64,000 nucleotides of DNA from an uncultured Clostridia bacterium (GTDB lineage: Bacteria; Bacillota; Clostridia; TANB77; CAG-508), in NCBI GenBank assembly GCA_934168305.1, contig CAKPNF010000002.1, positions 98,789-162,788 of the forward strand, given 5' to 3'. The translations under genes were made by a program, and so were the position numbers. Under the pieces are notes generated by a model. It saw nothing but the letters and a program-made list of their open reading frames with translations. It was not told the DNA's origin and did no database searches. Shown piece by piece: positions 10,130-50,409 of the stretch (the stretch's first letter is position 1; the number at the start of each line of letters is the position of its first letter).

Positions 10130-10266
10130 TTTAAATAAAAAACTATAAATTTTTGAGGTGGGTATATAAAGTATGCTCATCTTTTATTATGTCAATTAAA
10201 TATTGTATAATATAGGTAGAGTTCTATATATTGTAAATTATGGAAAAATGTAAGGAGGTAATTGTC

Positions 10267-11262
10267 ATGAGAGAATTGTTTGTTGAAAAAGTAATTGATT
10301 GGGCAGGAGAATTTTTAGACAATAACCAAAGAATAAAATTAAAAGAGATACTTACAGAAATATGTTTAAATTATCACATTGAAATATTAGAACAAAACCA
10401 AAAACAAGAAATACAAAAGAACAATGAAGAAATATTAAATAAATTTATATCATCAAAAGAAATTGAAGGCTGTTCAGTTAGAACATTAAAATATTATAAA
10501 GATAATATAACAAAAATGTTAGATACTGTAAATCTTCCAATAAATGAAATTACAATGGAAACATTAAGAAATTATTTATCAAATTATAAAAACAATTCAA
10601 CTGCGGGTATGGTAACAATAGATAATATAAGAAGAACATTATCAAGTTTTTTTGCTTGGTTGGAAAACGAAGACTATATTGTAAAAAGTCCTGTTAGAAG
10701 AATCCATAAAGTAAAAGCAGTGAAAAAGGTAAAAGAAACGTTAACAGATGAAAATTTAGAAAAATTAAGAGATACTTGCTCAAATGTAAGAGATTTAGCA
10801 ATATTAGAACTATTAATTTCAACTGGTATGAGAGTCGGAGAACTTACTAGATTAAATATATCAGATATGAATTTTCAAGAAAGAAGTTGTATTGTTATAG
10901 GAAAAGGGAATAGTGAAAGAGAAGTTTATTTTAGTGCAAAGAGTAAAATGTATATAAAGAAATATTTGGAAACAAGAACAGATAATAATGAAGCATTATT
11001 TGTTTCACTTATAAAACCCTATAATCGATTAGGAATATCAGGGATTGAAATTGCTATTAGAAACTTAGGAAAACAAGCAAATATAAACAAGGTACATCCA
11101 CATAAATTTAGAAGAACAATGGCAACGATGGCTATTGATAAAGGCATGCCAATAGAACAAGTTCAAAAATTATTGGGACACATAAAAATAGATACTACAA
11201 TGGAATATGCAATGGTAAATCAAAATAATGTAAAAAATTCACATAGAAAATATATTAATTAA
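10267..11262 (+). CDS. Tyrosine-type site-specific recombinase/integrase (XerD-like with an N-terminal extension)
   Basis: The C-terminal catalytic region (HPHKFRRTMATMAIDKGMPIEQVQKLLGHIKIDTTMEYAMV) carries the R..H..R..Y signature. A SAM-like N-domain is present. A strong RBS AAGGAGG sits 8 nt upstream of the ATG. Confidence 0.85.
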   Translation: MRELFVEKVIDWAGEFLDNNQRIKLKEILTEICLNYHIEILEQNQKQEIQKNNEEILNKFISSKEIEGCSVRTLKYYKDNITKMLDTVNLPINEITMETLRNYLSNYKNNSTAGMVTIDNIRRTLSSFFAWLENEDYIVKSPVRRIHKVKAVKKVKETLTDENLEKLRDTCSNVRDLAILELLISTGMRVGELTRLNISDMNFQERSCIVIGKGNSEREVYFSAKSKMYIKKYLETRTDNNEALFVSLIKPYNRLGISGIEIAIRNLGKQANINKVHPHKFRRTMATMAIDKGMPIEQVQKLLGHIKIDTTMEYAMVNQNNVKNSHRKYIN

Positions 11263-11607
11263 ATTGGATAAATAAAAAGTTGAATGTATAAAGCAAAAAG
11301 TCAGGATTAAATGATAAAAAATTCAAAAATTATATTAAAACCTAGTAATATTAACGGTTACATGAAATTTAAAACATCAAAAACAGTTAAGGCCGTTGAT
11401 ATTGCTAGTTTTAGATATTTAATTAATATTTTATTGGATTTTTAAATTCTGAAATAGTTAATTTGGCTGAATATAATTTTATATATTTTTAATATACAAA
11501 AAATTAAATTTTTGTAATAAAAGATTTTTGTAATCCAATTGCATAAAGAATTACAACTTTTAAAAATAAAATTTCATGATTTAGTAATGGCAAAAAGTCA
11601 GAAAATA

Positions 11608-11636
11608 TAGACAATTCAATGTTTTTGTAATATAAT
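11608..11636 (+). promoter_or_regulatory. Sigma-A-like promoter TAGACA-17-TATAAT for the five-gene module
   Basis: The -35 element TAGACA is at 11608-11613 and the -10 element TATAAT at 11631-11636, with a 17 nt spacer. It lies about 30 bp upstream of the Nudix gene. Confidence 0.5.
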
Positions 11637-11663
11637 GATTGTATCAAAAAAGGAGGCATTTAA

Positions 11664-12206
11664 ATGGAAGAGAAGTTAGACGTATTAAATGAACGTGGGG
11701 AGTTTACAGGAAAGGTAGCTACAAGAGAAGAATGTCACAGGGAAGGATTGTGGCACAGAGCTGTATACGGATTCATAATAGATAAAAATTCAAATGTATT
11801 ATTACAAAAAAGAAGTCAAAATAAAAAACTATGGCCGAACAAATGGGATGTAACTGTTGGTGGACATGTGGATTCAGGTGAATTTGGAAGACAAACAATA
11901 ATCAGAGAGTGTAAAGAAGAACTTGGAATTGATGTAAAAGAAAACGAAATAAAATATCTAATATCTTCTACATCTGTGTATGAAAAGAATAACTATTCAA
12001 ATAAGCACTATGATGAATGTTATTTGATTTTGAAAGATGTTGACATTACAAAGTTAAAACTTCAAAAAGAGGAGGTATCTGATGTTCAGTATTTTTCGAA
12101 AGAAGAATTATTAGAAAGAATAGAAAATAATTTTGATGGATTAACAGAAAAAACTGGTTCATGGCATTTTTTAAAGAAAATATTAGAAGATGGTAGAATA
12201 AACTAA
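11664..12206 (+). CDS. Nudix hydrolase
   Basis: A complete Nudix box GGHVDSGEFGRQTIIRECKEELGI (Gx5Ex7REUxEExGU) is present. Confidence 0.85.
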   Translation: MEEKLDVLNERGEFTGKVATREECHREGLWHRAVYGFIIDKNSNVLLQKRSQNKKLWPNKWDVTVGGHVDSGEFGRQTIIRECKEELGIDVKENEIKYLISSTSVYEKNNYSNKHYDECYLILKDVDITKLKLQKEEVSDVQYFSKEELLERIENNFDGLTEKTGSWHFLKKILEDGRIN

Positions 12207-12242
12207 AATAGAGATTACAAATATAACATGGAGGTAAAATGT

Positions 12243-12893
12243 ATGTTGAGCTTACACTATGATTTAGATAATGAAAAAGTAAAATATTTAATTACTACAG
12301 ATGACAAATTAGGTAAATTAATTAAATATATCAATAAAACTGAATTGATAATTGAAGAAGATGGCTTTAAATGTATTGTTAAGTATATAATAGGACAGCA
12401 AATTAGTGATAAAGCTCGTGAAACTATTTGGCAACGTGTATGTGCAATTTTGAAAAATATAACACCTGAAAATATACTAGCGATAAATGATAATGAATTA
12501 AGAAAAGTAGGATTATCAGAACGTAAAATTAATTACATAAAAATATTAGCATCAGCTGTTATCAGTGAAGATATAAATTTTTATGATTTTAAGGAACTCA
12601 CCAATGAAGAAATTATAAAAAAGTTAACTGCATTAAAAGGTATTGGTCAATGGACTGCTGAAATGTATTTGATTTTTTCATTAGGAAGAGAAAATGTACT
12701 TTCAAAAGGAGATGGAACAATTAGACGTACAATACAGTGGATGTACGATTTGGAAAAATTACCATCTTCGGAAATATTGCTTAAATATTTTAGCAGTTGG
12801 ACTCAGTATGCAACAATTGTATCATCATATCTTTGGAAATCAATTGAATTAGGATTGGTGCAAAGACCTTTTAATGAGATTATATCAAATTAG
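12243..12893 (+). CDS. HhH-GPD family DNA glycosylase (AlkA / 3-methyladenine DNA glycosylase II-like)
   Basis: The helix-hairpin-helix LKGIGQWTAEMYLIFSLGRENVLSKGDGTIRR includes the catalytic Asp. The likely start is the ATG at 12243, after a GGAGG RBS. Confidence 0.75.
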   Translation: MLSLHYDLDNEKVKYLITTDDKLGKLIKYINKTELIIEEDGFKCIVKYIIGQQISDKARETIWQRVCAILKNITPENILAINDNELRKVGLSERKINYIKILASAVISEDINFYDFKELTNEEIIKKLTALKGIGQWTAEMYLIFSLGRENVLSKGDGTIRRTIQWMYDLEKLPSSEILLKYFSSWTQYATIVSSYLWKSIELGLVQRPFNEIISN

Positions 12894-12905
12894 GAGGCTA
12901 AAAGT

Positions 12906-14156
12906 ATGGATAATGGAAAATTATATTGGATGAATTATTCTATTAATATTGCTAATGGTTCAAAAGATAATAATTTGCGTGTAGGTGCTGTTTTAGTTAC
13001 AGAAGATAATAAGCTAGTTTGTTCTGCTTATACAGACGAATGTTCTGGTTTATCGTGGTATGAAATATTATTGTCTAAAATAGAAAAAATAAATGTAAAT
13101 AAGGCTTACTATTTATTTTTAACAGTAAATACACTATTTTCGGAATCAGAATTTGACTTAAATAAACTAATGGAAAAAATAGCCATTGAAGAAATATACA
13201 TAGGTGTTCCAGACCCTAATTTGGCAGATTATTTATCGAATGATCCGATTGGTACATTCAGGAATATTTATCGTTATTCAGACAATTTGAAAAGAATGAT
13301 ATTGCAGCAAAATCTTAATTATTACAGAAATGTTAAACAAAATATAAAATCTAGTCCATATTATTCTGCTAAGAGAATAAGCAATATAGTTATGGAAAAA
13401 CTAGAAGAAAAAGGTATTTTTATTTCTAAAGAAGAATTGCAATCAAATAAACAAATTGAAAAATTAATTCAATTGATTGTTGAAAAGTATAAGTTTAATA
13501 TAGATGATGCTAGTAAGCTAGTAAATTTGGTAATGTCTGAAGCATTTGATGAGAAATATGCAACATATAATTATTCAGATGATGCTCGTTCACTTAGTGT
13601 GGATTGGAAGAATAATTTTTTAAAGATATATAACAAACTGTTATTATCTTCATTGGAAAATAAAGATATATTAGATGTTGGTGTAGGAAGTGGTAATGAA
13701 GCAATAGCATTATTTTCTAATTGCCCTAATATTACATTTGTTGATATTGCACCAAATGGTTTGAAAAAGATAAAAAAACAAATTCCGAAATCAAATATTG
13801 TTGTATCAAGGGCTGAAAAGCTTGTTACATTAATAAATAATAGCTATGATATTTATATATCATTAAGAACATATAATTCGTCCTTTTTCAATGTAAAACA
13901 AGCAATTTCAGAAGCACATAGAGTTTTAAAAAAAGATGGTATTATAATTATTTCTATTGCAAATGGTTTTTTAAGCCCAGAGAATCAATATATAATTCCG
14001 GGCTTACTTATTCCAGGAACAGAGTTTGTTGATATTTATAGAGGGTTTGATATTATAAAGAAATTGTCGACAGAACTTTGTAATAATGGTTTTGAAGATA
14101 TTAAATTTTTTCCAACAAAGGTAGAACTTTTTTTAACGGCTAAGGCAAAAAAATGA
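12906..14156 (+). CDS. Fusion of a cytidine/dCMP-deaminase-fold-like N-domain (zinc ligands not conserved) to a class I SAM-dependent methyltransferase
   Basis: The N-domain reads VGAVLVTEDNKLVCSAYTDEC...YLFLTVNTL...IEEIYIGVPDPN. It parallels the CDA fold but lacks the H-A-E and PCxxC motifs. The C-domain carries MTase motif I (LDVGVGSGNEAIALF) and a post-II motif (VLKKDGIIIIS). Confidence 0.6.
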   Translation: MDNGKLYWMNYSINIANGSKDNNLRVGAVLVTEDNKLVCSAYTDECSGLSWYEILLSKIEKINVNKAYYLFLTVNTLFSESEFDLNKLMEKIAIEEIYIGVPDPNLADYLSNDPIGTFRNIYRYSDNLKRMILQQNLNYYRNVKQNIKSSPYYSAKRISNIVMEKLEEKGIFISKEELQSNKQIEKLIQLIVEKYKFNIDDASKLVNLVMSEAFDEKYATYNYSDDARSLSVDWKNNFLKIYNKLLLSSLENKDILDVGVGSGNEAIALFSNCPNITFVDIAPNGLKKIKKQIPKSNIVVSRAEKLVTLINNSYDIYISLRTYNSSFFNVKQAISEAHRVLKKDGIIIISIANGFLSPENQYIIPGLLIPGTEFVDIYRGFDIIKKLSTELCNNGFEDIKFFPTKVELFLTAKAKK

Positions 14157-14181
14157 TGTGAATTTTTAAAGGAGGTACTAA

Positions 14182-14937
14182 ATGATTGAACCAAAAACAT
14201 TTGCTCAGAAAGTAATAGAATTTAATAAAGAATTATCCAAAATATCAATGGAATTACCGGATGGTTTTAAAATTATAAATCCATTTAATGGAAGTCAAAA
14301 AGAAATAGTAAATGAAATTTCAACAGTATTCTACAAAAGGTTTTATAATGACTGTAATAAGCGTCATATAATATTAGGAAGTTCTCCAGCACGTAGAGGA
14401 ACAGCTATTACAGGTGTACCATTTGAGGATGCGGCACATCTTCAAAAAGAAACGGGTATTCTGATTGATAAGTTTTATGTTAACAAGTCATCGTCAGGCT
14501 TTTTATATGATGTAATTGAAAAATATGGTGGCTGCAAAAAGTTTTATTCTGATTTTTATATGAATTTTGTCTGTCCTGTTGGTATAGTTAGAACTAATTC
14601 AAAAGGAAATGAAGTTAACTGTAATTATTATGATAGTAAAAAATTACAAGAAACATTGTATTCACTTATTGTTAATTCAATACAGGCACAAATTGATTTA
14701 GGAATTGATACTTCCATATGTTATTGTATCGGAAGTGGAGAAAATTATACTTTTTTATCTAAGATAAATGAAAAACACAAATTTTTTGAAGAAATTATAC
14801 CATTAGAACATCCACGATTTATAATGCAATATAATTCAAAACATAAAGATGAATTTCTTGAAAAGTATTTGACAGCTTTAAAACAAAATCATAATAAAGA
14901 AAAGGAGAATAATATAGAATATGATAGAGAAAGATAG
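14182..14937 (+). CDS. Uracil-DNA glycosylase superfamily-like protein (divergent)
   Basis: A motif-A-like GSSPARRGTAITGVPFED (GxxPxxxGxxxxGxPF) and a motif-B-like EHPRF (HP) sit near the C-terminus. Several Cys residues are present. The family assignment needs an HMM search. Confidence 0.5.
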   Translation: MIEPKTFAQKVIEFNKELSKISMELPDGFKIINPFNGSQKEIVNEISTVFYKRFYNDCNKRHIILGSSPARRGTAITGVPFEDAAHLQKETGILIDKFYVNKSSSGFLYDVIEKYGGCKKFYSDFYMNFVCPVGIVRTNSKGNEVNCNYYDSKKLQETLYSLIVNSIQAQIDLGIDTSICYCIGSGENYTFLSKINEKHKFFEEIIPLEHPRFIMQYNSKHKDEFLEKYLTALKQNHNKEKENNIEYDRER

Positions 14938-15703
14938 TAAAATATTAGTTCATTTTGATACTAACGATACAAGTATATATCAGCTAAAAGGAGATAGTAT
15001 ATCATTAATAAAAAAAGAAAGAGTTTTTTTTAATGAAACACTAATACATGACGAGTTATTCAAAAAGATTGATTATGTTATTGAAAAACTAAGAATGATT
15101 GTAGAAAAAGTTGATAATGAAAGTGTAAGATTATATGCTACTGGAGTCTTTCAGGAATTTTCAGAAGAAGAACAAACACAATTAATAATACATGTTTTTG
15201 TAAATTCAGGCTTATGTTTTAATATAGTAAAGCCTGATTTAGAACAATTTTACATTGAAAAAGGTTTGGAGAAAAGTAACGAAAAAAATATTATTAATGG
15301 AATTGTTCAACAGGAATTTAGAAAGGTTGTTATATGTGGTAGTTTTCAACAGAATATGCAAGAAATAGGGAACATCATAGGAATCTTAAAAAAACGAAAT
15401 ATTCAGATATTAAGTCCTTGGACAATGGATATTGTTCCTGAGTCCTTAGGTACTGACTTTATTCTTCTAGAAGGTCAAGAGTTAGTAAATGAAAGGGATG
15501 CATGGAGACATAAATATGATCATATGAATAAATTTAAAAAAGCAGATGCTATTATAGTATGTAATCCTGAAGGAAGAATAGGAAAAGGGACTATGTTTGA
15601 ATTTGGTTTCATGATAGCGTATTCAAAAAGAATTATTTTTACAAATGAACCGAAAGACTTATCAATTCCATTTCCATATGAGATAGGATTAAATTTTATG
15701 TAA
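14921..15703 (+). CDS. Unknown N-domain fused to a nucleoside 2-deoxyribosyltransferase / DNPH1(Rcl)-like domain
   Basis: The C-terminal half reads KVVICGSF...ADAIIVCNPEGRIGKGTMFEFGFMIAYSKRIIF. It resembles the NDT/DNPH1 pattern (YFCGSI...ADaviAxLDg..D.GTa.EiGyA.algKpv). The ORF overlaps the upstream gene by 17 bp. Confidence 0.5.
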   Translation: MIEKDSKILVHFDTNDTSIYQLKGDSISLIKKERVFFNETLIHDELFKKIDYVIEKLRMIVEKVDNESVRLYATGVFQEFSEEEQTQLIIHVFVNSGLCFNIVKPDLEQFYIEKGLEKSNEKNIINGIVQQEFRKVVICGSFQQNMQEIGNIIGILKKRNIQILSPWTMDIVPESLGTDFILLEGQELVNERDAWRHKYDHMNKFKKADAIIVCNPEGRIGKGTMFEFGFMIAYSKRIIFTNEPKDLSIPFPYEIGLNFM

Positions 15704-21406: not shown

Positions 21407-21537
21407 GGGGCCACCACACAAAATCCCTCTTTCTTGAACCAAAGTTGACGTTTTGAACCATTGGTTCAAAACTTTGGTTTATTTAAATATTCTAAAAATT
21501 TTAAAAGAGGGATTTTGTGTGGTGGCCCCTTAATCCC
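21399..21537. repeat. Family-1 palindromic repeat: two inverted 29 bp units GGGATTAAGGGGCCACCACACAAAATCCC enclosing nested family-3-like palindromes
   Basis: The units are at 21399-21427 and 21509-21537 (inverted). The inner inverted repeats are AACCAAAGTT/AACTTTGGTT and TTTTGAACCA/TGGTTCAAAA. Both convergent genes terminate (KRD-TAA) within the units. Confidence 0.8.
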
Positions 21538-25798: not shown

Positions 25799-25827
25799 GG
25801 GATTTTGTGTGGTGGCCCATTGATCCC
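25799..25827. repeat. Family-1 repeat, solo 29 bp unit (GGGATTTTGTGTGGTGGCCCATTGATCCC)
   Basis: It matches the unit found at 21509, 29752 and 47348. It starts 3 bp after the queA stop. Confidence 0.75.
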
Positions 25828-29699: not shown

Positions 29700-29701
29700 A
29701 T

Positions 29702-29789
29702 GAGTTAAGTGGGAGTAAGGGGCCACCACACAAAATCCCTGTGAACCAATGGGGATTTTGTGTGGTGGCCCCTTACTCCCACTTAACTC
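29702..29789. repeat. Family-1 palindromic repeat: perfect 38 bp arms around a 12 bp centre
   Basis: The left arm is GAGTTAAGTGGGAGTAAGGGGCCACCACACAAAATCCC and the centre is TGTGAACCAATG, followed by the reverse-complement arm. It starts 2 bp after the spoIIP stop and is followed by a T-rich stretch. Confidence 0.85.
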
Positions 29790-29835
29790 ATTCAGGTGCT
29801 TGCACTTTAATTTTTCAAAATTTTTATAGAAAGTG

Positions 29836-29916: not shown

Positions 29917-30270
29917 ATGGAAGAAAATTTTACAGAATGCAACATATTGCATGAAGGAACAGTAAAAAAAGTAAAACAAAAAATGCCAGAAGACGGCTTT
30001 ATATATGATTTAGCAGAACTATTTAAAGTATTTGCAGATTCAACAAGAATGAAAATAATATATGCTTTATTAGAAGAAGAATTGTGTGTATGTGACATTG
30101 CAAATATTGTAGGAACAACGCAATCAGCAATATCACATCAATTAAGATTATTAAAACAATCAAAATTAGTAAAATTTAGAAGAGAAGGAAAAATAATATT
30201 TTACAGTTTAGACGATGAGCACATCGAACAAATTGTAAAGAAAGGAAGTGAACATATTGAAGAGTTATAA
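29917..30270 (+). CDS. ArsR/SmtB family metalloregulator
   Basis: The HTH region LAELFKVFADSTRMKIIYALLEEELCVCDIANIVGTTQSAISHQLRLL carries a CVC metal site. Confidence 0.8.
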   Translation: MEENFTECNILHEGTVKKVKQKMPEDGFIYDLAELFKVFADSTRMKIIYALLEEELCVCDIANIVGTTQSAISHQLRLLKQSKLVKFRREGKIIFYSLDDEHIEQIVKKGSEHIEEL

Positions 30271-32320
30271 GTATACATTAGAAGGGTTGGACTGTGCGGC
30301 ATGTGCAAAAAAAGTAGAAGATGAAATAGCAAACACAGAAGGATATGAAGATGTAGTTGTTAATTTTTCAACACTAAAATTAACGTTTAAAACAGATAAA
30401 CCAAGTCCAAAAAAGGAAATAACAAAATTAGTTCAAAAATTAGAACCAGATGTTGAAGTTCTTGAAGATGGGGAAGAAAATAAAGATAAAGAAGAACATA
30501 ATGGAAATGATATTGCTAGAATTATTATAGGAATTGCAATATATTTAATTGCTTTAATTGGAAATCTCAATACAATTGTTACAAGTGCATTAACAATAAT
30601 AGCATTTGCAATATTACTATACAAAACAACCAAAAAAGGATTTAAACAATTATTTAAAAACAAAGTATTAGATGAAAATATGTTAATCGTTGTATCAGCA
30701 ATTGGAGCATATTTGGTTGGAAAAAATTCAGAAGGATTAATGGTTATAACTTTATATGAAATAGGAAAAATATTAGAATCAAAAGCAGTTAACAAAACAA
30801 GAAAATCAATATCAAATTTAATGAATATAAAACCAGAATATGCAAATCTAAAACAAGGTGAAGAATGGAAACAAGTAACTCCAGATGAAGTAAAAATAGG
30901 AGATGTAATTCTTATAAAAACAGGAGAAAAAATTCCACTAGATGGTATTGTTATAAAAGGAAATGCTCAAATTGATAATTCAGCATTAACAGGTGAAAGC
31001 AAATTAATAGAAGTCGCGGAAAATAGCAAAGTTTTATCAGGAAGCATAAATACAAATGGCCTAATAGAAGTAAAAGTTGAGCAAACATATGAAAATAGCA
31101 CAGTAAGTCAAATTTTAAATTTAGTTGAAAATGCAACAGATAAAAAAGCAAAAACAGAAACATTTGTATCAAAAGCAGCAAAAATATATACACCAGTTGT
31201 AATGGGGCTTGCACTATTAGTAGCAATATTCATGCCACTAATTATAGCAGGAGTTACTTACAAAGAAAGTATTTACAAAGCACTAATATTTCTAGTAATT
31301 TCATGTCCATGCTCAATAGCAATATCAGTTCCATTAAGTTATTTTTCAGGAATAGGAAAAGCGTCTAAAAAAGGAATATTAATTAAAGGTAGTGAATATC
31401 TAGATGGAATAAAAGATATCAAAGAAATTATATTTGATAAAACAGGAACAATTACAACAGGAAAATTTGCGGTATCAGAAATAAATGCAATTGATGCAAA
31501 TTATACTAAGCAAGATGTTTTAAAATATTTTGCAATGGGTGAAAAAAATTCAAACCATCCAATAGCAAAATCGATATTAAAGAAATATGAAGAAGTATCA
31601 AAAGAAATAGAAAACGTTGAAAATTTTGAAGAAGTTTCGGGAAAAGGACTTCAATATCAATATGAAGGAAAGACAATAAAAATAGGAAATGCAGAATTCA
31701 CAAATGCAGACAAAGAAAATATTGTCGGAACAGTTTTATACTTAAATATAGACGGAAATGTTGTTGGAAAAATAGTTCTAACAGACGAAATAAAACCATC
31801 AACAAAAGCAACAATGGAAAAACTTCATAAGTTAGGAATAAAAACAAAAATGTTTACAGGAGACAAAAAAGAAATTGCAGAAAAAATTGCAAAAGAAGTT
31901 GGTATAAAAGCAGTAAAAGCAGAAATGTTGCCACAAGACAAATACAATGAATTAGATACAATAATTGCAAAAAGAGATGAACATCAAAAAGTTGCATTTG
32001 TTGGTGATGGAATAAATGATAGCCCAGTACTAGCAAGAGCAGATGTTGGAATTTCAATGGGCGGAATCGGTTCAAGCTCAGCAATAGAAGCATCTGATGC
32101 TGTAATTATGACAGATGAACTTTCTAAAATTGTTGATGCAATTGAAGTTTCTAAAAAGACAAATAAAATTATTAAACAAAATTTAATATTCTCAATAGGT
32201 GTTAAAATATTGACATTAATTTTAAGTTTACTAGGTGTTGCAGATATGTGGCAAGCGGTTTTTGCTGATGTTGGTGTTACTTTGATTACAATATTTAATA
32301 CACTTAGAATTTTAAAATAA
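30248..32320 (+). CDS. cadA: Heavy-metal-translocating P1B-type ATPase (Cd/Zn type)
   Basis: The N-terminal HMA motif is GLDCAACA and the TM CPC motif is SCPCSIAIS. DKTGTIT and GDGINDSPVLA are present. The start is GTG 30248 or TTG 30257. Confidence 0.85.
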   Translation: MNILKSYKYTLEGLDCAACAKKVEDEIANTEGYEDVVVNFSTLKLTFKTDKPSPKKEITKLVQKLEPDVEVLEDGEENKDKEEHNGNDIARIIIGIAIYLIALIGNLNTIVTSALTIIAFAILLYKTTKKGFKQLFKNKVLDENMLIVVSAIGAYLVGKNSEGLMVITLYEIGKILESKAVNKTRKSISNLMNIKPEYANLKQGEEWKQVTPDEVKIGDVILIKTGEKIPLDGIVIKGNAQIDNSALTGESKLIEVAENSKVLSGSINTNGLIEVKVEQTYENSTVSQILNLVENATDKKAKTETFVSKAAKIYTPVVMGLALLVAIFMPLIIAGVTYKESIYKALIFLVISCPCSIAISVPLSYFSGIGKASKKGILIKGSEYLDGIKDIKEIIFDKTGTITTGKFAVSEINAIDANYTKQDVLKYFAMGEKNSNHPIAKSILKKYEEVSKEIENVENFEEVSGKGLQYQYEGKTIKIGNAEFTNADKENIVGTVLYLNIDGNVVGKIVLTDEIKPSTKATMEKLHKLGIKTKMFTGDKKEIAEKIAKEVGIKAVKAEMLPQDKYNELDTIIAKRDEHQKVAFVGDGINDSPVLARADVGISMGGIGSSSAIEASDAVIMTDELSKIVDAIEVSKKTNKIIKQNLIFSIGVKILTLILSLLGVADMWQAVFADVGVTLITIFNTLRILK

Positions 32321-35000: not shown

Positions 35001-35076
35001 GCTTGCATAGCTCAGTTGGTAGAGTACTGCTTTGGTAAAGCAGAGGTCACGGGTTCAATTCCCGTTGTAAGCCCCA
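35001..35076 (+). tRNA. tRNA-Thr (anticodon GGT)
   Basis: The cloverleaf has acceptor GCTTGCA/TGTAAGC, D-stem AGCTC, anticodon stem CTGCT/AGCAG with loop TTGGTAA (anticodon GGT), T-arm ACGGG-TTCAATT-CCCGT and an encoded CCA. Confidence 0.9.
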
Positions 35077-35101
35077 ACTTAAGAAAAATGTGTTATGATG
35101 A

Positions 35102-36043
35102 TTAAATATTAATTTCCCATTTTGGTGGATAAAAATAGTCTATTTTATTTTGTTTTGGTACATATTTTTTCTTTATTTTAGTTCTGTTAGATTTTAAATC
35201 AGGCAATGCCTGTCTACAATATTTATCTAATTCACAAAATATATTTTGACAATCAATTAATTGTAAAGGCCTATTACCAATTCTTTTGAAATTCAAATTA
35301 AGTCTTTTAAATTCCTCATCTTGATGTTTATACATATATTTAATAATATTTTCATTAGTCATTTTACCTTTATCAATAAAGCATTTTTTTATTCCACGGA
35401 GTGAACCTGGTCCAGCAACTGTAAATTCATCTTCTTTCCAATCGACAACTTCACTATAATTAATATCAGTTACTAATTGGTAAGCCATAAAATTACCAAT
35501 TAATGGATAACTTTTAATAATATTGAATGCTTCTTCCATTGTTTTACATTTAACAATTTTATTTTGCAATTTATCTTCATTAAACATTTTATTTAATAAC
35601 GCTAAATGATTATCATGTTTTCTATCATATCCAAATGCTTTATTAGCACAGCTTATATAAGCATCATTATATATTTTTATATCATTTGATATAGCATTTT
35701 CTAATACTTTAGAGTAATTATTCATATTAAATGTTTTTAAAGTAATATCTTCAAAATTATTTAATAATAATTCCCAAGTGGATTCTTTATTAAATAGCTT
35801 AAATAGTAGTATTCTAAACAACATATCTTCATCTGAATAATTTTTACCGTTATATATAACATTTTTTAATAAATATTGACTAACTCTATCATTAACTCTA
35901 TAACTATTGCAAAATTTATATTCTTGTAAAATTGGATCTTCAGTCCATGGAGCTGACTCTCCATTTCTTTTCTTCCAAAATATATTTTGTCTTTCACATG
36001 CAAAATACCAATATAAATCATATACTTCCTGTCTTAATTTCAT
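35102..36043 (-). CDS. Hypothetical protein; the N-terminal motif resembles the aGPT-Pplase / 'nucleotide kinase domain' (putative DNA base hypermodification) family
   Basis: It is a 313 aa ORF ending 26 bp from tRNA-Thr. The N-terminus reads YDLYWYFACERQNIFWKKRNGESAPWTEDPILQEYKFCNSYRVNDRVSQYL. The pattern R..IY.FW....ER..I..KR....PWTEDPIL.EYKFCN.YR..DR is recalled from memory for alpha-glutamyl/putrescinyl thymine pyrophosphorylase clade-3-like proteins, and needs an HMM check. Confidence 0.55.
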   Translation of the reverse strand: MKLRQEVYDLYWYFACERQNIFWKKRNGESAPWTEDPILQEYKFCNSYRVNDRVSQYLLKNVIYNGKNYSDEDMLFRILLFKLFNKESTWELLLNNFEDITLKTFNMNNYSKVLENAISNDIKIYNDAYISCANKAFGYDRKHDNHLALLNKMFNEDKLQNKIVKCKTMEEAFNIIKSYPLIGNFMAYQLVTDINYSEVVDWKEDEFTVAGPGSLRGIKKCFIDKGKMTNENIIKYMYKHQDEEFKRLNLNFKRIGNRPLQLIDCQNIFCELDKYCRQALPDLKSNRTKIKKKYVPKQNKIDYFYPPKWEINI

Positions 36044-36244
36044 AAAATATACACCTCTTTTTTAATAAATTTTTAATATAATACACTAAATATTAAAAGA
36101 TTTCCATATTTTTATAAAAATAAATAGAATTATATTTTTATAAGTTATAACAAATTTTAATATCAAATATAGAAAATTATGAAAATTAATTGACTTTTAC
36201 ATAAAAACGTATTAAAATTATAGATAGTTAAATATAAAAAACAA

Positions 36245-36460
36245 GTAAGAGAAAAAGTAAAATAAAGGTTTCTTAAAGAGAGAATTAGCTGTGGCTGAAA
36301 GCTAGTTCAAGAAAACATATTTGAAAAACTACCTCTTCAAGTTTTTGGTGAACAAGCCAAACGTGTAAGATACGTTATAATCTTTTAATTAAGTAAAAAT
36401 TAGGATGGAACCGTGTAATAAATGCACTCCTATAGATGTAAAAATCTATAGGAGTTTTTT
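36245..36460 (+). promoter_or_regulatory. T-box riboswitch leader (Thr-specific) for thrS
   Basis: A conserved T-box sequence AAATTAGGATGGAACCGTG is at 36398-36415. An AGAGAG GA-motif is present, and ACC lies in the putative specifier region. The terminator hairpin GCACTCCTATAG...CTATAGGAGTTTTTT is at 36423-36459. Confidence 0.75.
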
Positions 36461-38447: not shown

Positions 38448-38563
38448 GACATTTGGGACAGTCATAAGATGTCTCATAAAAAATGAAGAAAAATGTCGAA
38501 TAAAATAATATAACAAAATTCGACAAAATTTATGAGACAAAATAGGACTGTCCCCAGTGTCTC
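38445..38563. repeat. Family-2 palindromic element (~120 bp, two inverted ~55 bp arms)
   Basis: The left arm is TGAGACATTTGGGACAGTCATAAGATGTCTCATAAAAAATGAAGAAAAATGTCGAAT. The right arm is its imperfect reverse complement (…TTCGACAAAATTTATGAGACAAAATAGGACTGTCCCCAGTGTCTCA). It overlaps the thrS stop codon and ends 15 bp before ychF. Confidence 0.75.
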
Positions 38564-38578
38564 AAAAAGGAGGAAAAA

Positions 38579-47303: not shown

Positions 47304-47376
47304 GGGATTAAGGGGCCACCACACAAAATCCCTCCAAAAAATTAGCCGGGATTTTATGTGGTGGCCCATTAATCCC
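47304..47376. repeat. Family-1 palindromic repeat (inverted pair of 29 bp units, second copy slightly diverged) between pgk and tpiA
   Basis: GGGATTAAGGGGCCACCACACAAAATCCC is at 47304-47332 and GGGATTTTATGTGGTGGCCCATTAATCCC at 47348-47376. It begins 5 bp after the pgk stop. Confidence 0.8.
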
Positions 47377-49734: not shown

Positions 49735-50409
49735 ATGTTAAAACATACGAAGAAAATAAAAGAGATGTATGAAGATATTCAAAGAAGAATATTTTATATG
49801 ATACCAGAAAAATGGGATAAAATGTATTTATATGCTTCAGTAACTGACTTAATAGATGAACATAAAACAGGGGAATTGTTCTTCTATTATATTCCAAAAG
49901 GAATATTTAAGAAGAACCCCGTTAATGTCTATGAAATACCCCAAAAGTTCAATTTAGATGAAAAAGAGTATCTAAAATTAGTAAATATTTTATATCAAAA
50001 AATCATAGAATTAAGAGAAGAGTTTAAGAAAATAGAACTTGTACCAACATGGACTAATATTATAATGTCAATTGAAGGCATAAAATTTAAAATTGAATAT
50101 GATTATGAAGATTTAAGTAAATCTAAATTTTCAAGTTATGAAAGACATATAATATGGAGGTATAATTATCTAGGAATTAAAGAAGAACAACTTAATAAAA
50201 AAGAAAAAGAAATAATAGAAAGATATTTAATAGGCGAAAAAGTTATTAGACGAAGAGAAAGGTACGAAGCGGGAATATACATAAAAAATATAAAAAACAT
50301 AGTAGATTATGACACTGAAAATTATTCATCAGAACAAAATATAGAGTATGTTGCAACAAGAGATAAAATGGCTAGAAATCAGATTATAATGACAGATAGC
50401 AAAAATTAA
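49735..50409 (+). CDS. DUF600 / YezG-family immunity-protein homologue (TIGR01741-like), orphan
   Basis: MYEDIQRRIFYMIPEKWDKMYLYASVTD...GELFFYYIPKG...ELVPTWTNIIMSIEGIKFKIEYDYEDL...IIWRYNYLGI matches the DUF600 pattern (MYNEIAN.I..MIPxEWEKVY...GGEVFF.Y...PW...F.F.REG.L...FDY). Confidence 0.7.
   Translation: MLKHTKKIKEMYEDIQRRIFYMIPEKWDKMYLYASVTDLIDEHKTGELFFYYIPKGIFKKNPVNVYEIPQKFNLDEKEYLKLVNILYQKIIELREEFKKIELVPTWTNIIMSIEGIKFKIEYDYEDLSKSKFSSYERHIIWRYNYLGIKEEQLNKKEKEIIERYLIGEKVIRRRERYEAGIYIKNIKNIVDYDTENYSSEQNIEYVATRDKMARNQIIMTDSKN

Follow-up and report, generated by a model that had tools for sequence, protein, structure and literature searches.

A solitary PF18723 gene beside tRNA-Thr, the surviving half of a mobile radical SAM cassette of low-GC gut bacteria

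Why does an uncultured bacterium keep, among housekeeping genes, an intact member of a gene family known from thymidine-hypermodifying phages, and where did that gene come from? The locus that raises this question lies in a 64,000-nucleotide stretch of the genome of an uncultured Clostridia bacterium (assembly GCA_934168305.1, contig CAKPNF010000002.1, positions 98,789 to 162,788; hereafter the window), in which positions 35102-36043 of the minus strand encode a 313-amino-acid protein of family PF18723. The explanation that we consider best overall, while holding it tentatively, is that the gene is the stand-alone remnant of a mobile cassette and encodes a DNA-binding enzyme that acts on C5-modified pyrimidines, probably in conflict with phages. 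The PF18723 family itself is already known; what appears to be new here is an architecture derived from a pairing with a radical S-adenosylmethionine (radical SAM) gene and now partner-less, together with its spread through many gut species.

The open reading frame at 35102-36043 is real, and the peptide quoted in a preliminary description of the locus corresponds to residues 8-58 of its translation. It is evidently a true gene and not a chance frame, because its Pfam match has an E-value of 1.7e-106, all 80 of the related copies analysed are intact, and the median ratio of nonsynonymous to synonymous divergence (dN/dS) is 0.09. The Pfam match, to PF18723 (HMUDK_hel), scores 356 bits against a cut-off of 25 and covers model positions 2-280 of 281; the two further matches listed in the same scan have E-values of at least 0.06 and belong to unrelated families. 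The GC content of the gene, 23% versus 27% across the window, is unremarkable in this group.

The origin of the gene becomes apparent from its relatives. We scanned a collection holding one genome per species, in which 292 stretches encode a PF18723 relative, and analysed the best 80 of the 292, which are 72-99% identical and belong to uncultured gut lineages under the labels Clostridium sp. CAG, Tenericutes, Bacilli, Erysipelotrichaceae and Clostridia. These loci fall into three classes:

44 of 80 loci: radical SAM sequence directly upstream of the PF18723 gene
33 of 80 loci: PF18723 gene solitary, no radical SAM sequence upstream
3 of 80 loci: upstream sequence too short to judge

The product of the upstream gene is a radical SAM/SPASM protein with a length of about 334 amino acids; the gene lies on the same strand and is mostly separated from the PF18723 gene by 2-7 nucleotides (nt). 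Homology between genomes extends from no more than 50 nt before the radical SAM start to the PF18723 stop, a span of about 2 kb, and the flanks are unrelated. The radical SAM protein is of the generic SPASM type and falls outside every named subfamily; a viperin-like identity was considered and rejected, the match being confined to the generic radical SAM core and a SPASM domain being present.

The window shows no trace of the cassette radical SAM gene. In the sister species (L024), the order of the sigH-like gene, tRNA-Thr and the PF18723 gene is the same as in the window, and homology between the two stops exactly at the ATG (window position 36043), beyond which L024 continues into the 3'-terminal 23 codons of a radical SAM gene before its contig ends. 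Other loci hold the radical SAM gene in various states of decay: three contain multi-frame fragments (L042, L055 and L063), two have a frameshift in common (L037 and L053), and one retains the final six codons only (L057); in L073 it is broken into three frames, which may reflect errors in an old assembly. Because L024 carries the radical SAM gene at the same locus and decayed remnants are found elsewhere, the solitary state must have arisen repeatedly through loss of the radical SAM gene. Judged from these sequence comparisons, the window gene is the surviving half of a horizontally mobile cassette of radical SAM and PF18723 genes that is widespread in low-GC gut bacteria, an origin that the preliminary description had not seen. 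As a separate observation, one metagenome-assembled genome (CALXCA01) carries two such cassettes on different contigs (L054 and L056), with PF18723 genes 87-88% identical to the window gene.

Amino acid identity was rejected as sufficient proof of transfer; since housekeeping proteins are equally similar at that level (GGGtGRT is also 97% identical across species), we used synonymous divergence (dS) instead. Between the window and L024, the values are as follows:

PF18723 gene: dS 0.051
sigH-like gene: dS 0.717
GH18/SH3 gene: dS 0.688
SpoIIP gene: dS 0.516
WG-repeat gene: dS 0.693

By this measure the PF18723 gene has roughly one-tenth the age of its surroundings, and its allele was therefore exchanged recently between the window species and L024. 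Close copies are also found in unrelated contexts. Among copies at 86-88% identity, one is flanked by rpmG-secE-nusG and a gene for an OGG-type glycosylase, and another has resolvase, TnpV, Zot and Rep genes as neighbours; neither resembles the window at the DNA level outside the coding sequence. The dS contrast and the unrelated contexts of close copies thus bear out the horizontal acquisition or exchange that had been suggested at the outset. A neighbouring segment is worth recording in its own right: an HTH_5 regulator gene and a P-type metal ATPase gene (29917-32320), 3 kb from the PF18723 gene, are 96-97.5% identical to L024 at the DNA level, with dS of 0.11-0.17 versus 0.5-0.7 nearby, and look like a second recently exchanged segment.

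Movement has not been accompanied by decay of the PF18723 gene. Measured against the window copy, dN/dS across the 80 copies has a median of 0.093 and a range of 0.06-0.14, and the key residues (below) are 100% conserved in radical SAM-linked and solitary copies alike, which points to strong purifying selection in both.

To which branch of the phage proteins does this gene belong? The preliminary description placed it in accession PF18723 and in clade 3 of the alpha-glutamyl-putrescinyl thymine pyrophosphorylases (aGPT-Pplase). The accession holds, as the single strong Pfam match, but the clade does not: phage homologues of the window protein (26-29% identity) are annotated "aGPT-Pplase clade 1", and PF18723 appears to be the former clade 1. 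The name "nucleotide kinase domain" is also correct, since RefSeq uses "nucleotide kinase domain-containing protein" for bacterial homologues; others are called "putative DNA base hypermodification protein". Membership in the phage thymidine-hypermodification gene set also stands, both in the literature and in the gene context of phages M6 and SP10. A control scan of M6 identified gp51 as PF18724 (ADDT, the former clade 2), gp54 as a P-loop kinase (PF18748) and the adjacent gp55 as PF18723. The 313-amino-acid protein has no PF18724 match at E ≤1, whereas the positive control M6 gp51 matches that family at E=1.4e-46, and no NCBIfam model matches it. In PHROGs it falls in a family of unknown function and in a "terminase small subunit" family that really consists of kinase-PF18723 fusions. 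Similarly, the 5-hydroxymethyldeoxyuridine (5-hmdU) DNA kinases of M6 (gp54, L007 11686-12249) and SP-10 (NC_019487 113312-114169) are called "terminase small subunit" in RefSeq, as is PHROG 800, and this label seems to have spread from one misannotation of the kinase-PF18723 protein to further records.

We then asked whether the fold and the conserved residues speak for an enzyme. An AlphaFold2 model built from a 70-sequence alignment is all-alpha and of high predicted quality (predicted local distance difference test, pLDDT, 96.3; predicted template modelling score, pTM, 0.93). Compared by Foldseek with viral structures, it matches the SP10 5-hmdU DNA kinase with a template modelling (TM) score of 0.83, other phage PF18723 proteins at TM 0.65-0.77, and amino-acid:DNA transferase (clade 2) domains at TM 0.48-0.51 with a probability of 0.93-1.0. 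In SP10 gp186 (637 amino acids), the PF18723 domain forms the C-terminal half, and the gene adjoins that of a deoxyuridine monophosphate (dUMP) hydroxymethylase. Searches of the PDB by sequence and by profile found no solved structure for the family, and nearly all top Foldseek matches in that database are glycosylases of the helix-hairpin-helix (HhH)-GPD type, all non-significant (E ≥0.8).

In the 70-sequence alignment (34-53% identity), the residues R18, R49, D52, F84, Q189, D193, G213, G217, E271, K274 and P306 are invariant and C270 is kept in at least 90% of the sequences. A Gly/Pro-rich loop comes after an HhH-like hairpin at about residues 178-189, and the motif FCExDKYxR (CE.DK), which contains C270, recurs in M6 gp55 and in the PF18723 protein of the E. 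coli system DS-4 (below). A profile compared with a single clade 2 sequence gave no significance, and an alignment of 29 clade 2 sequences improved matters modestly: in hhalign, the HhH-like hairpins align and C270 falls on the only highly conserved clade 2 cysteine (gp51 C247), with E=8e-4 and a probability of 24%. Mutating this conserved cysteine or the neighbouring glutamate abolishes clade 2 activity (PMC8989533). In phages, P-loop kinases phosphorylate 5-hmdU in DNA and clade 2 enzymes then transfer amino acids (PMC8989533; PMC5889632). The action on 5-hmdU DNA that the preliminary description attributed to the family is documented only for the P-loop kinases and for clade 2 enzymes; the PF18723 protein M6 gp55 is dispensable in vitro. 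Additional hints at the substrate come from domain fusions, which in relatives at 45-53% identity join the PF18723 domain to thymidylate-kinase-like kinases or to MazG and MazG_C, and in relatives at 40-42% identity to a glycosyltransferase or an MT-A70 methyltransferase.

By analogy with these proteins, HhH-type DNA binding combined with chemistry at Cys270 and Glu271 is the most likely activity. In such a mechanism, the helix-hairpin-helix element (about residues 169-195) would bind DNA, a pyrimidine would enter a pocket lined by invariant Arg, Asp and Gln residues, and Cys270, beside the invariant Glu271 and Lys274, would attack C6 of the base, allowing a reaction at the C5 substituent; the attack of the cysteine on C6 is modelled on the chemistry of the related clade 2 amino-acid:DNA transferases. 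The more likely role of the protein would then be one in conflict with phages that use DNA of the 5-hydroxymethyluracil (5-hmU) type, whose bases it would recognise, trap or alter.

Several observations weigh against this proposal. The gene sits among housekeeping genes and outside any defence island, and PADLOC has no model that matches the protein. Pfam names the family a "helical domain". A demonstrated activity was found for no PF18723 protein, and our literature search turned up no paper assigning a function, in agreement with the preliminary description, which had rightly called the function of stand-alone bacterial copies unknown. When gp55 of M6, identified as PF18723 by our Pfam scan, was omitted from the in vitro reaction, the product was unaffected (PMC8989533). 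The alignment of C270 with the clade 2 cysteine is weak at a probability of 24%, and the DS-4 protein is only 29% identical and acts inside a five-gene operon. The substrate could also be a free nucleotide instead of DNA, which is conceivable because of the kinase and MazG fusions. Finally, the search for partner genes covered 64 kb of the genome, and partners could lie elsewhere.

What does the locus itself tell about how the gene arrived? Its immediate surroundings are as follows:

35001-35076, plus strand: tRNA-Thr(GGT) (ARAGORN; Rfam tRNA, 70 bits)
35102-36043, minus strand: PF18723 coding sequence, 313 amino acids, ATG start (open reading frame call, Pfam, conservation, AlphaFold2, dN/dS)
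36052-36059, minus strand: ribosome-binding site AAGAGGTG, 8 nt before the ATG (sequence inspection)
36078-36106, minus strand: weak sigma-70-like match TGGAAA-17-TATTAT, 9/12, putative promoter of the PF18723 gene (consensus scan)
36190-36218, plus strand: promoter-like site of thrS, 10/12 (sigma-70-like promoter scan)
36235-36434, plus strand: T-box leader of thrS (Rfam RF00230, 73.8 bits, E=2e-15, below the gathering score of 93)

The neighbours of the PF18723 gene are thus tRNA-Thr, the sigH-like gene and thrS. The gene and tRNA-Thr(GGT) are adjacent, as had been noted, and converge; the gap from stop codon to tRNA 3' end is 25 nt (35077-35101) and not 26. A terminator or stable hairpin was sought in these 25 nt and none was found, so that transcripts of the PF18723 gene would run antisense through the tRNA gene. 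On the other side, the flank 36044-36404 is indeed AT-rich and non-coding (about 20-24% GC), but it is not anonymous, being mostly the thrS control region: the promoter-like site and the T-box leader belong to thrS and explain most of it. About 145 nt upstream are left for the ribosome-binding site and the weak promoter-like match of the PF18723 gene itself; in the consensus scan, promoter-like matches around the gene were not commoner than in shuffled sequence.

The position beside a tRNA gene had suggested insertion of an island at that site. While horizontal movement is clear, tRNA-Thr as its integration site is unsupported. There is no integrase among the genes called within 20 kb on either side of the PF18723 gene, and an att-like repeat of the tRNA-Thr end was sought and not found. 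Nor is there an empty site within the species: the contigs with an identical sigH-like protein and enough flank all carry a minus-strand gene at the same offset, which was called PF18723 wherever the full reading frame fits on the contig. Among the 80 related loci, a tRNA lies within 600 nt in 10, and these are of six kinds (Thr-GGT, Thr-CGT, Gly-TCC five times, His, Arg with Pro, and Trp). An origin as phage cargo was examined as well, and yielded one close viral match, located about 4 kb from an integrase and a CI-type repressor at a contig edge.

Other features of the window and of conspecific strains were recorded along the way. In one conspecific contig (L005, 2110-7031), an insertion between thrS and ychF encodes a reverse transcriptase (RVT_1), a bAvd-like protein and a 786-amino-acid protein and resembles a diversity-generating retroelement; the corresponding site is uninterrupted in the window (38448-38578). 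In another (L003, 16333-18562), a UPF0236-family gene (512 amino acids, possibly a transposase) and a 128-amino-acid reading frame lie between the HTH_5 and SpoIIP genes and are absent from the window. A GC-rich palindromic element with the arm GGGGCCACCACACAAAATCCC occurs at four intergenic places (21407-21529, 25799-25819, 29719-29772 and 47312-47368); the arm has seven matches versus none expected by chance, with matches in L024 too, and at 29700-29790, just past the SpoIIP gene, the element forms a perfect hairpin with 40-nt arms. It looks like a dispersed repeat of the repetitive extragenic palindromic (REP) or terminator type, striking at a genome GC content of 27%. A gene for a YezG-like immunity protein (49735-50409; Pfam E=2.5e-27) lies between iPGM and NifU-like genes, with no toxin partner noted beside it.

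In tblastn searches of the whole 64 kb (E ≤0.01), we found no homologue of the M6 kinase, thymidylate synthase (TS)-like protein, transferase or radical SAM protein, none of the DS-4 TS-like protein or deoxynucleoside monophosphate (dNMP) kinase, no match to a kinase domain or a MazG domain taken from the fusion proteins, and no homologue of TIR or Nmad2-like proteins (queried from plasmid loci) or of the cassette radical SAM protein. The kinase and hydroxymethylase partners that the preliminary description had proposed to look for are accordingly missing from the window. It had also connected the gene with a module at 11.6-15.7 kb under a common theme of DNA base modification. This module is real and comprises a NUDIX protein, an HhH-GPD glycosylase, a 416-amino-acid protein with a methyltransferase domain, a protein of the uracil-DNA glycosylase (UDG) superfamily and a weak match to nucleoside 2-deoxyribosyltransferases. 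No link to the PF18723 gene emerged: the two are 20 kb apart, and none of the module's genes was found within 8 kb of the PF18723 gene across the 80 related loci. The module is headed by a gene for a tyrosine recombinase of the integrase family, and recombinase and module genes share one strand (10240-15703). More distant relatives do have partners. Plasmid homologues (41-50% identity) adjoin TIR, MazG or radical SAM genes, and in a metagenome sample, the contig of a gut phage has a PF18723 gene, 38% identical, between the genes of a 5-hmdU kinase 2 and a TS-like protein, which suggests that phages with such chemistry may share the habitat.

A further-reaching version of our explanation would treat the radical SAM/SPASM and PF18723 genes as an undescribed mobile two-gene system of gut bacteria whose action on DNA bases bypasses the kinase and hydroxymethylase route of phages. 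The radical SAM enzyme would make a reactive or oxidised C5 substituent, the PF18723 protein would perform cysteine chemistry on it, and solitary copies would keep an activity of their own, erasing, hijacking or covalently trapping 5-hmU-type phage bases. We regard this version as doubtful; if true, it would give the former clade 1 family its first function.

The same pairing can be read in another way, which we consider improbable: the radical SAM protein would harm or mark DNA or nucleotides, the PF18723 protein would reverse or tolerate this, and the window gene would be the orphaned protective half, comparable to the orphan methyltransferases that outlive their restriction enzymes. The repeated decay or deletion of the radical SAM gene beside an intact PF18723 gene would fit such an arrangement, as would the tight coupling of the two (2-7 nt in most linked loci), the mobile cassette with its sharp ends, and the purifying selection on solitary copies with all key residues kept. 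However, the loci were gathered via PF18723, so that a radical SAM gene without PF18723 would be invisible; an orphan antidote would be expected to decay eventually, yet 33 solitary copies are intact; and toxicity is not known for the radical SAM protein, a generic SPASM protein without assigned function.

To a housekeeping role we likewise assign a low probability. The protein would then sanitise or repair damaged or unusual pyrimidines (e.g., oxidised thymine in the form of 5-hmU) in the DNA or the nucleotide pool of small-genome gut bacteria, in keeping with its strong conservation in many species, with the OGG-type glycosylase, dGTPase or dCMP deaminase genes adjoining some solitary copies, with the fusion of close relatives to thymidylate-kinase-like and MazG domains, and with the place of the window copy among core genes. 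The variable position, the unshared flanks and the recent exchange (dS 0.05 versus 0.5-0.7) nevertheless suit an accessory gene better. One copy adjoins the resolvase, TnpV, Zot and Rep genes mentioned above, and the adjacent nucleotide-metabolism genes differ between genomes and may be a coincidence.

That the protein hypermodifies the host's own DNA, converting host 5-hmdU into a hypermodified thymidine with partners encoded elsewhere in the genome, is unlikely because the 64 kb hold no kinase, dUMP hydroxymethylase or transferase, and we give it only a slight chance. PF18723 does belong to a gene set unique to thymidine-hypermodifying phages (PMC8989533; PMC5889632), the window contains a second set of base-handling genes at 11.6-15.7 kb, and our view is limited to 64 kb of the genome. 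Against this, the tblastn searches of the window returned no 5-hmdU kinase, TS-like hydroxymethylase, clade 2 transferase, MazG or radical SAM homologue, no such partner apart from radical SAM sequence was identified among the immediate neighbours checked at the 80 loci, the phage reaction does not need the PF18723 protein in vitro (PMC8989533), and the 11.6-15.7 kb genes were not found near the PF18723 gene in relatives. A non-catalytic DNA-binding accessory, be it a structural or regulatory leftover or a slowly decaying relic, would agree with the Pfam name, with the dispensability of M6 gp55 in vitro (PMC8989533) and with the usual partners missing from the window, but its chances are slim, given that a dN/dS of about 0.09 and 0 of 80 disrupted copies rule out a decaying relic and that the Cys, Glu, Lys, Asp, Arg and Gln residues are invariant from phages to bacteria at 24-29% identity, as in an active site.

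Setting these alternatives beside the mobile remnant acting on C5-modified pyrimidines, we see several reasons why the locus matters. The PF18723 family is conserved from phages to bacteria though dispensable in the M6 in vitro reconstitution (PMC8989533), and the window together with its relatives amounts to a natural experiment, in which the same protein is found both beside a single, tightly coupled radical SAM partner and alone, and is under strong selection in either state. The question is tractable, involving two genes and a few point mutants, and the gene moves among abundant uncultured gut bacteria. Should the protein turn out to act on the modified DNA of phages, it would be a single-gene player in the contest between hypermodified phages and their hosts, and a possible yield would be a new enzyme that handles 5-hydroxymethylpyrimidines in DNA.

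How close, then, does the window protein come to known systems? The most distant comparison is with the HhH-GPD glycosylases (AlkA, OGG1 and endonuclease III), the fold type that is predicted for the family in two publications (PMC8989533; PMC5889632). The HhH-like hairpin and the Gly/Pro-rich loop are present in both, whereas the window protein has no Pfam HhH-GPD match, a G-P-G loop sits, by eye, at the position of the glycosylase catalytic Asp, and its invariant residues (Q189, D193, C270, E271 and K274) lie elsewhere than that Asp. With the clade 2 or ADDT enzymes (PF18724; M6 gp51 and ViI gp247), the window protein has in common a distantly similar predicted fold (TM about 0.5) and a weak profile match on hairpin and cysteine. 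The surroundings of the cysteine differ, FCExDK in the window protein versus LCKWKSH in clade 2, and the clade 2 pathway supplies phosphorylated 5-hmdU, a pathway that tblastn did not find in the window.

The phage PF18723 proteins (M6 gp55, the stand-alone PhiW-14 protein C9DG43 and the C-terminal half of SP10 gp186) are closer: at 24-29% identity to the window protein, they belong to the same Pfam family, have the same predicted fold (TM 0.65-0.83) and carry the CE.DK motif towards the C-terminus. In phages the domain is joined to a P-loop 5-hmdU kinase or encoded next to one, with a dUMP hydroxymethylase close by; the window gene is without either, and its ancestral partner was a radical SAM/SPASM gene. 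The last comparison is with E. coli DS-4 ("NTTI"), described in PMC13092281 as a validated anti-phage operon of five genes encoding a TS-like protein, a dNMP kinase, a PF18723 protein, a TIR protein and Nmad2. None of the other four genes lies beside the window gene or elsewhere in the 64 kb. The DS-4 PF18723 protein, however, is itself stand-alone, carries the same motif and matches the window protein at 29% identity (E=8e-34). DS-4 is the only cellular PF18723 context that we found with an experimental phenotype and the sole validated bacterial system containing the family, and the role in phage conflict proposed here agrees with it.

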